Position numbers: made by a program. DNA of 64,000 nucleotides. Origin: Escherichia coli O157:H7 (GTDB taxonomy: Bacteria; Pseudomonadota; Gammaproteobacteria; Enterobacterales; Enterobacteriaceae). The number at the start of each line of letters is the position of its first letter. Position 1 is the stretch's first letter. Positions 56,301 to 62,300 of the stretch are shown here, one piece after another. Where the stretch lies: assembly GCF_013167455.1 (NCBI RefSeq), contig NZ_CP038328.1; one strand, given 5' to 3'.

Positions 56301-59300
56301 CTGATTTCTGCTGCTCATACAGCAGGCGTTTAGCTTCGTCCTGGTCAGAAAAACGAGTAAGCAGGTGGCGAATCACAACCGCCAGCTCTCCTTCTATTTT
56401 TTCTGCCAGCATGGGGTCGCGTTCGTTTTCCGGTACAACCTCCGAAAAATTGAATATCACCCGACGACGTGAAATCCCCCCGCTGCGGTCACTGAATGAC
56501 ATGGCGTTATTGTTCACCGCCAACACTACCGCCTGAATGCGTGTTGAGTAGGGGGCTTTATGCTTCGGGTCGATTGCCACCTTGTCACCGCCTGTAATGG
56601 CCTTAATTCCTGCGCCATCACCAGCGTAACGGGTCATATCCGGCATGATAATCAGCGAAAAGCCAACCACTAACGCGCGTTCCCTGGCATCTTCCAGCGC
56701 CTTCATGCTTGCCGATACCGTGTTGGCCTTACCCGCCAGCATGGTGCAAATCTCCGCCATCACGCTTTTACCACTTCCCCCTGGACCTGTTACCTCAATG
56801 AATAACTGCCAGTCGTACCGGTTCGCCAGCACCATGAATAATGCAGCCAGTACGCGATCCGCCTTGCGGTCATTCTCAGCCACCGAACGGCGTAACCACT
56901 TCCAGAAATTCGGCGCATGTGTTGCCAGCGTTTCCCCCTCTGCTGGTGGGCTGAAAGGTAATTCACTGGCAATTAACAACCAGTCGTTTTTGTTATGCTC
57001 CCGAAAATCGCCTGTCCGGGTATCAAAAACACCGTTACTGAATCCAATCAGGTTACGGGCTGTATTCCCCATTACAGGCAAACTTAACTTCATGGTATCG
57101 ACCGCCGATTTAATGGCGTTCTGCGAATAGCTGATCTCCGCATCAATGAAAATCTGTGCCATAGCTCGCTGTAATTCTTTATCCTGTACTGGCTCCCATA
57201 CAACGCCGTTGTAATAGTGAACAGTGTCAGAGTCAGCATGAATCGCCAGTTCACCGCCATAATGTGCCAGGAGAACTTCGCCGCGTTGACTTGCTCCCAT
57301 CTGGTTAAGCGCCAGTGATGAAGCGTTATCGTCTTTTACCCGCTCTTTTTTCTTTACAGGCAGTTCAACTACCTTTTTCTTTTCCGCCTGCTCTGCCCGT
57401 TCACGTTCCAGATATTCGCGCCAGTTCTCCCGTTTCTGGCTGTGCATTCCTTCAGGGTAATAATCAGCATCCCTGACACCTGCCGCTGCCAGTTTCTGCC
57501 CGATGGTATTAACAAGCCCCGAACGCAATAACCCCGCCTGATAGAGACGCACGCGATAGCGTCCGTCCGGTACGATTTGCAGGTTGTCCAGTTCGGCAAG
57601 TTGTTGCTCTCCAAGCCAGACAGGTGGCACGTTATCGCCAGCCAGTCGCCCGTCCTGTTCCTGCCACTGCTTCGCATGTGCCCACGCATCACTACCCGCA
57701 AAAATGATGACTTCCGTCATTTTGTCACGTGGCTGGTGTTTTAAATTTGGCGCTTTTTTCATTTCTGCTCTCTCCACGCGGCAATCATGTTTTTCAGTTC
57801 CTGTAGTTTTTTATCAACATCCATACATGGCACATGGTTATTTCTGGAAGGCGGGATTTCCCGCCTGAATCTGCTAATAAAGATCTCCACGTTCAGCGAA
57901 CTATGAAATGAATAGCCATCACGAATAAAATACACACGGTCAAACATCAGTTCTTTTACCGTTACTCTGTTACCGTTCTTATCCAGATAAATAGCGCCGG
58001 GGATAATTTTTGGGTGTGCATAACCGCTGGCAGTCAAGCCAGATAAATATGTTCTCATGATTATTTATCCCCGATTTGAATCAGTATTCGCTTTCTTTAT
58101 GGCATTTAATGCATCTGTGGCATTTTCAATGGTGCACCGTAACGAAATATTAAACTGTCCAAGCATTGCCAGTAACAAACCGATATTACCCATATCAATG
58201 CGCATGACCTTTTCGTCATAGTCCTCATTTTCTGACGCATGCCACATCAGGCTACCAATTGACGCAACAGCCATTGATATATTGTCAGTAGCCCCATCCG
58301 CAGCGGAATAAACCTTTTTAGCAATATCATGCTCACAGTTAAAATGCGGATTAATCAGGTACTGGTAATTTGACATATCAGGCATGGCACACCCCCTGAC
58401 GAATACGGGCGGCGAATACAGCAACACAACCGGACGGGCAACGGCTACGCGCTTCGCGTTCCGTCCAGGCGGTTACGTGGATGATTTGATGTTCTGACGC
58501 GCCAAAGATGATAAAGCGCCAGAGAAAGGCGGTTTGAGAATGTACAAGGGTAGGGATAGTAGCCATGTTGGCAGCCTCCTCAGTGTGGTTAAGATAACCG
58601 CCACCGGAAACGCCAATTTCGCTGGTGGCGGACTGTACAGGGTTGGCGTAACCGGACACTGAAGAAACCGGCGCGGATTGCTCCGCCCCCGTACAGCCCA
58701 CCATTGATAAGGTGTGACTATGCGGCACAAAAAAACACGCGGGGCGCGTGTTATGCGCTTCAGTTTTGCCCAGGACGCCAATCCCGGCACCCGTTTTATG
58801 AGGTGCGCGGGAATCATAGCTATTTTCGACACTGGCGATCAACTGGTTTTTTTCTCCGATATTCAGGGCCAGAAAACGCCACACAAAGGCCGTTTGTGTG
58901 TGTACAAGGTGTGGTATATGATTTACGGCAACCATAACGGCTCCTAGTTTACGTTGTTGGTTAGAAGCCCTGCGAGTGGTAACGACACTTGCGGGGCTTT
59001 GTCTTTTCATCGATTACCTTGATAAAGGTGTCAGCCACTATATTAGTAACAGGTGTCAGCCACGTCAATAGTGTTTTTCCGTTTTCTTGTGTGTATACTG
59101 TCAGCCACCTAATAACGAGGAAATCAGATATGGCAACAAAAGCAGTTAATGCAAAATCCAAAAAGCTTGAGGCTCGAGTACCACACGCAATAGCTGATGC
59201 TGTAGAAAATTTAAAGGAAGATGGCGAAAGTACAGGGCAATTTATCGTTTCGGCACTTGAAGGCGAGATCAAACGCCGCCAGCGCCGCAAGGCCAAAGAA

Positions 59301-62300
59301 TCAGAATAATCACTATCAGCGCCGTGGTGTGAGGTATTACGGCGCATTGCTATGCAGGACAACACAATGACCGATAAAGAATTGACCAAAACATTATCAC
59401 CGGCACGGAAAAGACGGCGCAGAAAGATAGAGCATGAATCAGAAAGATTCGCACCATGTGCTTTTGCCCTTGAGCAATTCCTTAAAGAGTACAGGGAAAA
59501 GCGCTCATTGCAGGTATGGCAACGAACTGAACCAGACTGATTGCATTGCCCACCAGCCTGATAGCGGCTATCATCCCCGTGCTTATGTTTGGGATCACAT
59601 ACACATAAGGCGCAGCGGGTTAATTGTTCAGAAAGGCGGCTCCATATCGGGGCCGCTTTTTTCGTGTTTGTCATATCTGTGATACCCGTTAAGCAGCCGT
59701 TCCGCGTGCTTCCTCTTCGCGTTCTTTCTGCCAGGACAACACATCATCCTCATACCATCCGCGACGGCGTAAACCAACGCGAAAACCCTGCGGAAATTCT
59801 CCGGCGTTGATCATGCTTTGCAGCGTGCTGTCTGCCTTGATGTGGATAATTTTTTTTACTTCCTGGCGAAAGATAATTTTTCTGATTGCTTCCATCGTGA
59901 TTTACCTTGTGAATCCGGTGTATTCCGGTGACAAATACGGTAAATCATCGGATATGGGTAAAAACAGTTCCCACCGTTTTTAAACGGTATACACCGTTTT
60001 TTATATTGATGATTTGAAATGGAATTATAAAAAAAGCGGCATTTCTGCCGCTTCCAGGATTGTTACCGCCATTTTTTGGGCCTGCCTCCGATCTTCATAG
60101 ATGCCGGACGTACGACCTTATCAATACTTACCGCCAGATTTCTGGAAGCGCCACGGGATACCAGAAAATCTACTACCTGTTTTTTTGATGGGGCCGTCGT
60201 TCTGTCCTCCGGATCGTAGGTTGACCAAAATTCATGCTGAACCATCAGGGCCAGTTGCAGCCCGTCGCAATTGCATCTGATATTTTTTTGCATCTTAACG
60301 GTTTCATGTTTCACGGCCTTGTCGTTAAATTTGATGCAATTATACGACGGTTTTACATGGTTTTCGTAGTTTTTACTGGTTTTCTGTACAGCTACACGGC
60401 TCGGATACCCCTTTTACCACTGGCGAGGGTTACGCCCGTCGCCGCGGCCTCGACAAATTCGCCCCACCAGCGCATCAGCACGATGCGTTTTTCTATGTAG
60501 TTGCTCCGGTTGTATGCCCGTCTAACTTCGTTGGTGTCGACGTGGGCAAGTGCCGCCTCTATTACGTCCGGCTCGAATCCTTCCTCGTTCGCTGCTGTGC
60601 TGAATATGGCGCGTAATCCATGAGACACCAGCACGCCAGCGAATCCCATACGCCGCAATGCTGCGTTAGCTGTCTGGCTGTTCATCGGCTGCTGTGGGTC
60701 TTTCAGACTTGGGAAAACGTAATTGCGGTGGTGGCTGATTGGTTTCATGGCCTCCAGCACCGCCATAGCCTGACCGGAAAGCGGGATAACGTGATCCCTG
60801 CGCATCTTCATGCGTCCGGCAGGTATCGTCCATTGCTTCGCGTCCAGGTTGATTTCATCCCACCGCGTTGATGACGCTTCGGCGGGACGGGTTACGGTCA
60901 GTAACTGCCATTCAATCAGTAATCTGGTCTGCCGTTCTGTTGCCGATACTGATAAAGCCTGCATAAGCTCGGGCAGCTGTTCGGGGCGGATTGTTGGCAT
61001 ATGTTTTTTTACAGGTGAGGGAAACGCCTTACGCACATTCATAGCCGGATTGGCATCAATCAGCCCACTGTTGGCGGCGTAATCCATTACCTCATTAACG
61101 CGCTGTAAAACCCGCTTGAGTGTTTCCAGGTTGCCGCGCTCCTTGATGGGGGTAAGCACTTCAACGAACCTTCGGGCGGTGAGGGTATCTATTGGCGTGT
61201 TGCCGATGAACGGGAATACATATTTATCCAGCGAACGCCAGATGTCTTTAATCGTGTTGGGGGCCAGATTCTGGCTGATTTTCACCTGGTACCATGCCGC
61301 CGCCACATTTTCGAACGTGTTCCCTTGTCTTCGGGCCTCTGTCTCTCTTTTTTGCCTCTCGTGGTCCTGCGGGTCAGTTCCGGCACTGATTAACGTCCTG
61401 TACTCGCTACGGCGTTTTCTGGCATCAGCCAGGGAAACATCTTCAAGCGATCCAAAACTCAGCAATATTCTTTTTTTGTCCGATGGTCGGTAGTAGGAAA
61501 ATCTCCAGAGTTTTGATCCAGACGGTTTGACCAGGAGAAAAAGCCCTCCGCCGTCCTGCAGGGTGTACTCCTTTTGCGCTGGTCTGGCTGCTTTGATCTG
61601 CACTGTGGTTAATGGGTGTGTTTTTCTCGCCATATGTCTATGATTCCACACGAAAAAACAGGGTTTTAGTTATACGGCTTTAGTTATACGCCAGCCCGTA
61701 TAACTAAACGTATAACTAAAAAATCCGGCTGATAGCTTATAAATCCGGTGATGTTCGGTGACTAAAAAACATAAAAAAACCCGCCAATCAAGTGATTAGC
61801 GGGTTATCCCTGTCTTATCCGGTGCTTTCCGGTGATATCCGGTGGGCGATTTGGTCGGCACGAGAGGATTTGAACCTCCGACCCCCGACACCCCATGACG
61901 GTGCGCTACCAGGCTGCGCTACGTGCCGACTCGTGGTTGTTAATACTACCGTTTTCCACACCGATTGCAAGTAAGATATTTCGCTAACTGATTTATAATT
62001 AATCAGTTAGCGATAAAACGCTTCTCGTCTGTCAGTACTTGCAATAACAAACTTAACTGTGGTTTTTCATCTTTCACTCTTTCACCACGTAAGTTGTAAG
62101 TGCGGTATTTACCGTTATTGTTCAGCACCAGCGTCTTTTTCGGGGTGGTAATTGCCAGCGTATCGTTATCCGCTGCGGTAACCCAGTAATGACGGCGTTG
62201 AGGGTTGAACAAATCCTGACCTTGCGAATATTCGCTGGCAGGTGTGCTGACATGTAGCAGGCGTTGCATCAGCGTCGTCATCAGATCGGTATGATCAGTC

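Follow-up and report, generated by a model that had tools for sequence, protein, structure and literature searches.

Does the small gene beside the replication operon of a phage satellite in Escherichia coli O157:H7 encode a repressor of that operon, and are the three short repeats between the two its operators? The question was raised by a preliminary description of a 64,000-nucleotide stretch of contig NZ_CP038328.1 (assembly GCF_013167455.1), called the window below, in which the repeats and a divergent ribbon-helix-helix-like gene were proposed to form a genetic switch. Judged by its genes, the last 11 kb of the window (3' end) is a phage satellite of the Gram-negative phage-inducible chromosomal island (PICI) type, located at tRNA-Pro and adjoining yejM. 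The product of the small gene belongs to the YlcI/YnfO family and is referred to here as YlcI. We consider it probable, at roughly three chances in four, that YlcI is a ribbon-helix-helix repressor which binds the three sites, silences the leftward operon of icd-like, replication and packaging genes and regulates its own synthesis.

The repeats were confirmed by a sequence scan. The decamer TGTCAGCCAC is present in three exact plus-strand copies, at 59029-59038, 59054-59063 and 59099-59108, all within 80 bp. Simple arithmetic gives about 0.12 exact occurrences expected on both strands of the window (128 kb), and such a cluster is not a product of chance. With up to one mismatch allowed, the window contained 12 matches against 3.9 +/- 2.0 in shuffled sequence. 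Besides the three, the only exact copy in the 64-kb window is at 18826-18835 (plus strand); it lies outside the island within a 260-aa open reading frame (ORF), has no G on its 5' side and is compatible with a chance occurrence. The flanks of the islands (397 kb) likewise contained no copies beyond chance (1 found, 0.76 expected), and the candidate operators are local to the switch region. Copies 1 and 2 lengthen to AGGTGTCAGCCAC, and comparison with relatives defined the repeat unit as an 11-mer of the form GTG-N5-CAC. The elements of the switch region are, from left to right:

59028-59038, plus strand: O1, candidate operator GTGTCAGCCAC, a full match to GTG-N5-CAC, at about -5 to +6 of the predicted promoter P_L
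59040-59068, minus strand: P_L, predicted leftward promoter, with -35 TTGACG (59068-59063), a 17-nt spacer, -10 TAATAT (59045-59040) and a start near 59033
59053-59063, plus strand: O2, candidate operator GTGTCAGCCAC, a full match, filling the 17-nt spacer between the -35 and -10 of P_L
59069-59093, no strand assigned: T-rich tract (A-rich on the minus strand) between the two promoters, from the consensus of 36 loci
59094-59099, plus strand: -10 element TATACT of P_R, the ylcI promoter, abutting repeat 3
59098-59108, plus strand: O3, candidate operator cTGTCAGCCAC, a 10/11 match, overlapping the predicted start and the final two bases of the ylcI -10
59130-59309, plus strand: ylcI-family gene, candidate repressor of 59 aa, with ribosome binding site (RBS) GAGGA at 59117-59121 and an NCBIfam match

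A profile scan with one genome per species recovered 79 loci from many Enterobacterales genera, and further variants were collected from E. coli genomes; the Enterobacterales and E. coli loci gave 77 distinct combinations of protein and upstream sequence. The roughly 170 nt upstream of ylcI had a single architecture almost everywhere (about 70 related loci). Read towards ylcI, the order is a hairpin followed by a T run (plus strand), site 1, about 13-23 AT-rich nt, site 2, (G/T)TCAA, the T-tract, GTATACT, site 3, the RBS and the ATG; the framework GTGnnnnnCAC(G/T)TCAA...T-tract...GTATACTGnnnnnCAC was conserved in 36 loci. Counted from the ATG of ylcI, the start of site 3 is at -31/-32 and that of site 2 at -76/-77 in 52 of the 77 distinct loci. 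The distance between sites 1 and 2 is 25 or 35 bp, and in several groups site 1 is inverted. The sites fall on core elements of both predicted promoters, an arrangement kept in 36 non-redundant loci. On the minus strand, (G/T)TCAA together with the last base of site 2 reads as the -35 element TTGA(C/A/G)G, which is retained beside site 2 in 36/36 of these loci, most of them also having a -10 of the TAnnnT type. Site 2 forms the 17-nt spacer of this promoter in the related loci, and site 1 lies on, or directly after, its start site. On the rightward side, GTATACTG is almost invariant in the 36 loci, independently of the operator type. The T-rich tract may act as an UP-like element for P_L. The proposal that the repeats are operators is thus strengthened by their constant placement on a pair of back-to-back promoters in some 70 related loci, where the cores of the sites change in concert.

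The central claims of the preliminary description are supported as far as computation reaches, and some of its details had to be revised. It had correctly placed the third repeat against a tatact -10 element but had assigned this element to the leftward operon; the hexamer is the -10 of the regulator's own rightward promoter, and repeat 3 would therefore provide autoregulation. The predicted promoter of the leftward operon, P_L, is instead set between the first and second repeats. The intergenic space of about 120 bp had been counted from a spurious ATG at 59010; the true leftward start is at 58935, and the divergent region measures 194 bp. Both long minus-strand ORFs here (237 aa, 58961-59674, and 210 aa from 59010) were rejected as spurious, because their composition resembles antisense translation and because they also overlap two family-supported plus-strand genes and a terminator hairpin.

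The switch is widespread and occurs in variant forms. Matches to the switch segment are present in about 409 of 5426 complete E. coli genomes and cover 80% or more of the segment in 157 of these; in one RefSeq E. coli locus (L001), where the island is flanked by tRNA-Pro and yejO, the switch region is 100% identical to that of the window. In two E. coli loci, L004 and L005, the ylcI slot is filled by Arc-like ribbon-helix-helix genes (3217-3390 and 3219-3410, respectively, both on the plus strand), whose proteins gave hits to profiles of the Arc type (PHROG 228, E about 1e-6; Pfam Arc, E=0.04). These regulators have repeats of their own, GGTAATTACC twice and AGGTGACCAC twice, ahead of the same (G)TCAAC -35. 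An unrelated regulator with its own repeats on the same scaffold implies that regulator and sites were swapped as one cassette. RefSeq does not annotate the regulator genes of L004 and L005, giving long ORFs on the opposite strand instead, such as WP_001304194.1; the calling of long antisense ORFs over small regulator genes is a systematic mis-annotation in several RefSeq records. Another locus, from Xenorhabdus japonica (L018), has a single degenerate site, TGCCAGCCAC, and no promoter scaffold upstream of ylcI; a deletion between repeats while the element decays would give this picture.

The strongest argument for YlcI as the protein that acts at the repeats came from comparison of the five-base core with the YlcI sequence. 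The core varies between loci, but the three sites of any one locus share it, and about 19 operator 11-mers were seen. The residues 11-16 of YlcI and the operators found with them were paired as follows:

KKLEAR, operator GTGTCAGCCAC, in E. coli and Xenorhabdus; RKLEAR in Pectobacterium
KRFDVR, operator GTGTCGGACAC
LQVSVR, operator GTGAACACCAC
QQLNAR, operator GTGAATCGCAC
QMTTVR, operator GTGAAATACAC
QSVTAR, operator GTGTCTTACAC
QKMSAR, operator CTGGCACCCAC
QQIVSR, operator GTGAATGCCAC
QALKAR, operator GTGTGGCCCAC

Where two loci are identical at residues 11-15, 91% of the pairs have a common core, compared with 1.5% of other pairs, and the Mantel correlation between core and protein was 0.70, a value reached in 0 of 2000 permutations. 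The columns of YlcI which best predict the core are residues 14 (adjusted mutual information 0.79), 12 (0.67) and 13 (0.60), and not one of 1326 pairs combined the same core with a difference at residue 12 or 14, which upholds the earlier pairing of the regulator with the repeats. Arg16 of YlcI and the GTG and CAC ends of the operator are invariant. In 36 pairs of loci the non-operator flanks were at least 75% identical and the cores differed; 29 of these differ at residues 12/14, and the remaining 7 all involve a one-base variant in a single locus. Ribbon-helix-helix proteins contact DNA through a strand whose alternating positions face the major groove, and residues 12, 14 and 16 alternate in this way in YlcI. 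The covariation gives indirect support to sequence-specific binding through alternate residues of the YlcI beta-strand.

An independent check was provided by EcCICFT073, the experimentally studied PICI of E. coli CFT073 (L086, in the roxA-phoQ interval), which carries PerC, SSB, primase and capsid genes as well as ylcI. Its YlcI (WP_000190587.1, region 8960-9260 of L086) has the signature QALKAR, and upstream of the gene GTGTGGCCCAC occurs twice and cTGTCCCCCAC once, at the canonical positions; a homologue of the window's orf62, the gene downstream of ylcI, is present. The pairing of signature and core is that of a Pseudocitrobacter locus (L034).

The small gene that the preliminary description took for a ribbon-helix-helix regulator is real, having a good RBS and a family match. 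Its product matched the NCBIfam model YlcI/YnfO (NF041551) with E=1.1e-16 and 60.6 bits against a cutoff of 30. The AlphaFold2 model had a mean pLDDT of 88. The predicted beta-strand covers about residues 10-18, including KKLEAR at 11-16: when two copies were modelled together with a flexible linker between them, residues 10-18 formed strands followed by two helices in both (pLDDT >90), with the N-terminal strands paired in a beta-alpha-alpha topology. A G-x-S/T/N turn, which in this superfamily makes a phosphate contact, precedes helix 2 (GESTGQF, residues 32-38), and Gly32, Glu33, Ser34 and Thr35 were invariant or nearly so in 32 homologues. Lower-ranked matches included NikR, HicB, ParD, TacA and PutA. 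An hhalign comparison with the Arc-like protein of L004 was in register and weak (E=0.002, probability 13%). YlcI matched no Pfam family even at E<=10, the Arc/Mnt family PF03869 included, nor any PDB sequence, and a tblastn search of 50,697 phage records with it gave no match and hence no pointer to a homologue in a helper phage; in PHROGs it falls in a family of unknown function (PHROG 949). On these models and the conserved turn, the ribbon-helix-helix fold of YlcI is well supported.

From the sites, their fixed geometry on promoter-like elements, the predicted fold and the covariation, we infer binding, the direction of regulation and its relief as follows. YlcI dimers would bind the three 11-bp GTG-N5-CAC sites through the beta-ribbon. 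Arg16 and the conserved N-terminal arm may read the invariant GTG and CAC ends, and recognition of the five-base core, which varies, would fall to the variable residues 12 and 14. YlcI bound to O2 in the spacer and O1 at the start would exclude RNA polymerase from P_L and keep the operon silent, and occupancy of O3, predicted to be slightly weaker, would limit the synthesis of YlcI itself by negative autoregulation. Relief might come from an anti-repressor of the helper phage, or from AlpA-driven leftward transcription passing antisense through orf62 and ylcI into the operon.

The remainder of the island, from right to left, is composed of:

61855-61928, minus strand: tRNA-Pro
60392-61651, minus strand: integrase gene (int)
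between int and alpA, minus strand: ORF of 83 aa (orf83)
59689-59895, minus strand: AlpA-type helix-turn-helix gene (alpA), assigned by PHROG excisionase/regulator families and PGAP, convergent with ylcI-orf62
59630-59662, plus strand: terminator 3' of orf62
59352-59540, plus strand: orf62, small basic protein, downstream of ylcI (PHROG 21027, function unknown, E=1.6e-15)
58381-58935, minus strand: first leftward ORF, icd-like N-terminal fragment, with its ATG at 58935, its frame extending across isrK and C4 and joining that of the icd-like gene
58813-58842, minus strand: second leftward promoter, sigma-70-like (TTGATC, 18 nt, TATGAT), directly upstream of isrK, with no operator nearby
58730-58806, minus strand: isrK-family RNA (Rfam RF01394, 66 bits against a gathering threshold of 50)
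58621-58708, minus strand: C4 antisense RNA, a relative of P4 CI and P1 c4 (Rfam RF01695, 77.6 bits against a gathering threshold of 45)
58378-58566, minus strand: icd-like gene (NCBIfam NF033153)
leftward beyond the icd-like gene, minus strand: small ORFs, DUF4222, P4-type primase gene (55945-57777), terS and the major capsid gene

The assignment to the PICIs rests on this set and its conserved order of tRNA-Pro, int, orf83, alpA, ylcI-orf62, icd-like gene, DUF4222, primase, terS and capsid genes. Among 75 related loci, int was found in 58, alpA in 54 and a replicase gene in 47. The Rfam int-alpA motif RF02996 was seen between int and alpA in five loci (L019, L022, L023, L056 and L079) and gave no match in the window at E<=1. 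In most loci no conserved feature comes after ylcI, orf62 being present in 6 of the 75; orf62 was also 100% conserved in relatives with a different regulator cassette.

The first leftward ORF is an open frame of 185 codons with a match to Pfam Phage_ASH (E=7e-17, residues 40-133), is labelled by PGAP as an incomplete 'ash family protein', and its icd-like N-terminal part is identical to the start of the intact gene in another locus (L002). Transcripts of the upstream promoter may serve for its translation, as in P4; alternatively, the Pfam family may have been built on the conserved RNA. In P4 lysogens, seqA and CI, the relatives of isrK and C4, act by terminating transcription of the replication genes (PMC10111431, PMC4825925). 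By their Rfam matches, isrK and C4 behind their own promoter constitute, within the leftward operon, an RNA immunity module of the P4 type. Neither RNA was found in any of 18 other YlcI loci tested, and the module is therefore an addition in the lineage of the window. P4 has a regulated promoter, PLL, upstream of a constitutive one, PLE, and translation from the upstream promoter lets transcripts escape termination. YlcI would govern the upstream member of a similar pair in the window.

Four points weigh against repression of the operon by YlcI. AlpA is an activator, and its over-expression alone induces EcCICFT073 (PMC6092414), so that YlcI is not an insurmountable block; the factor acting upstream of YlcI would be AlpA itself or a helper product. 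No good -35 element was recognisable for P_R. An operator-free second promoter sits between the switch and the replication genes in the window, and with isrK and C4 behind it the YlcI switch is not the sole control here. Finally, sites and gene are tightly linked, and co-inheritance alone would give some covariation, which the comparison of loci with similar flanks lessens and does not remove.

The first three of these points would also fit a different role for YlcI at the same sites. The protein could bind them and mainly autoregulate, or could be a dual regulator like P22 Mnt, activating its own weak promoter from O1 and O2, since a P_R without a -35 might need activation; the operon would then be left to AlpA and, in the window, to C4 and isrK. 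The placing of O2 and O1 on the spacer and start of a well-conserved sigma-70-like P_L is hard to square with binding that leaves this promoter unaffected, and the RNAs that would take over control are missing from the 18 other loci. We regard this role as unlikely and repression of the operon as the better explanation.

The fourth point, linkage, can by itself make a site covary with the nearest gene, and the repeats might then be bound by AlpA, the Icd-like protein, orf62 or a host factor, with YlcI following by adjacency only. The three island proteins were rejected as binders, none of them following the core: the same core occurs with an AlpA of only 36% identity (L003), with different Icd-like proteins, and with or without orf62. 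A host factor cannot account for about 19 operator 11-mers, and the signal peaks at the alternating strand residues 12 and 14. Binding by another protein is accordingly improbable. A toxin-antitoxin pair, in which YlcI would be the antitoxin to orf62 or the Icd-like protein and the repeats an autoregulatory operator, was rejected as a shade less probable still: a small ribbon-helix-helix protein followed by a small gene is compatible with it in the window, but the rarity of orf62 after ylcI leaves no regular co-transcribed toxin, the icd-like gene is divergent and not co-transcribed, and two of the three sites lie on the divergent promoter and not on that of ylcI. The least probable reading takes the repeats for iterons or a cis-replication region of the island primase/helicase, like the octamers of P4 ori and crr. 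In its favour, the repeats are short and direct and their intergenic region is AT-rich, with a P4-type primase about 1.3 kb away. The reading was rejected because the repeats are tied to no replication protein (the identical switch is found with the window's primase and with a RepA-family helicase in L001, a helicase similar to the latter has another core in L002, and primases 85-86% identical have different cores in L006 and L079), because they sit on promoter elements, and because a cloned rep-ori segment of EcCICFT073 replicates by itself, which places the origin elsewhere (PMC6092414).

A further candidate element was found just left of O1:

58964-59010, plus strand: intrinsic terminator, a 15-bp stem (hairpin 58964-59000) and T run
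58929-59010, plus strand: candidate cis-antisense RNA of about 80 nt, covering the Shine-Dalgarno sequence (58941-58945) and ATG (58933-58935) of the leftward icd-like ORF

The terminator hairpin was kept in all relatives. In 37 of 40 loci the plus-strand RNA forms the more stable hairpin (summed energies of -889 and -674 kcal/mol for the plus and minus strands), with 92 G.U pairs on the plus and 18 on the minus strand. In a consensus fold of the terminator stem and a small hairpin upstream of it, which shows an anti-Shine-Dalgarno CUCC in its loop, 15 of 22 predicted pairs had compensatory changes. The 5' end was deduced from a possible promoter, TTGTGT (58894), 17 nt and TATGAT (58917-58922), whose TAnnnT keeps a constant spacing to the terminator, also in loci with a shifted start codon; this hexamer also overlaps conserved coding sequence, for which reason the promoter is unproven. 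The candidate had no Rfam match. The conserved folding suggests an apparently undescribed plus-strand antisense RNA over the Shine-Dalgarno sequence and AUG of the icd-like ORF, comparable to sar of P22 immI or to the antitoxin RNA of a type I system.

Gram-negative PICIs have been reported as AlpA-induced (PMC6092414). No repressor has been identified for them so far, and later searchable satellite papers mention none; in the searchable satellite and PICI literature neither YlcI nor a ribbon-helix-helix regulator is mentioned, a search on the regulation of cf-PICIs returned nothing relevant, and no paper on the function of YlcI/YnfO was found. EcCIMP1 has a 'putative repressor', but this protein is PerC/ANR-like and has no relation to the YlcI switch. 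It is conceivable, although we hold this view only tentatively, that the YlcI proteins are these missing repressors and the equivalents of Stl, falling into some 20 or more hetero-immune classes according to a code at residues 12 and 14, and forming with the antisense RNA, which would block translation of the icd-like gene, a double lock that helper phages or AlpA-driven transcription must overcome. Of 25 pairs of co-resident copies in the same genome, 1 shared a specificity against 1.8 expected (P=0.46), too small a difference to bear on whether such copies avoid sharing one. The switch heads a replication and packaging operon, and it occurs in EcCICFT073 and in satellites of many Enterobacterales genera. 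If repression by YlcI is correct, YlcI supplies the missing half of the induction circuit of Gram-negative PICIs, an uncharacterised family that includes two E. coli K-12 y-genes gains a function, and the variants make up a compact natural set of orthogonal repressor/operator pairs with an apparent two-residue code.

A ribbon-helix-helix repressor on divergent promoters is a well-known kind of regulator; the YlcI family, its operator code and its role in PICIs appear undescribed. YlcI and YnfO are proteins of the K-12 prophages DLP12 and Qin, and the window gene is a member of their family by hidden Markov model. The K-12 ylcI gene (L085, 16252-16446, minus strand) is a more distant member with the same pattern of beta-strand and helices; it differs in adjoining cos/nohD of the lambdoid prophage DLP12, and no comparable GTG-N5-CAC triplet was seen upstream of it, by eye only. 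The omega repressor of streptococcal plasmids and CopG-type proteins differ in site length, site sequence and genetic context and have no homology to YlcI. To our knowledge, P4 has no ribbon-helix-helix repressor at the corresponding position. P4 (CI RNA, seqA/seqC) and P1 immI (c4, icd, ant) resemble the operon of the window in its isrK, C4 and icd-like gene (PMC10111431, PMC4825925), but their control is RNA-based and would act downstream of the YlcI switch.

Two further parallels are the Stl/Rpr master repressors of Gram-positive PICIs, among them the Staphylococcus aureus pathogenicity islands (SaPIs), and those of phage P22. Stl proteins are larger helix-turn-helix proteins which are inactivated by binding helper-phage proteins, whereas YlcI is a ribbon-helix-helix protein of 59 aa. 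Like SaPI Stl/Rpr, YlcI is divergent from the replication and packaging operon of its island and would keep the island quiescent (PMC6092414). With P22 immI the window shares a small ribbon-helix-helix repressor (Mnt/Arc in P22, the candidate YlcI here) divergent from the promoter it controls, operators over back-to-back promoters (Pant/Pmnt) and an antisense RNA over the start of the first gene (sar in P22, a candidate here). YlcI differs from Arc and Mnt in having no detectable sequence relationship to them, in its three 11-bp sites in place of one palindromic operator, and in heading an operon of icd-like, replication and packaging genes, not an antirepressor, in a satellite rather than a phage.

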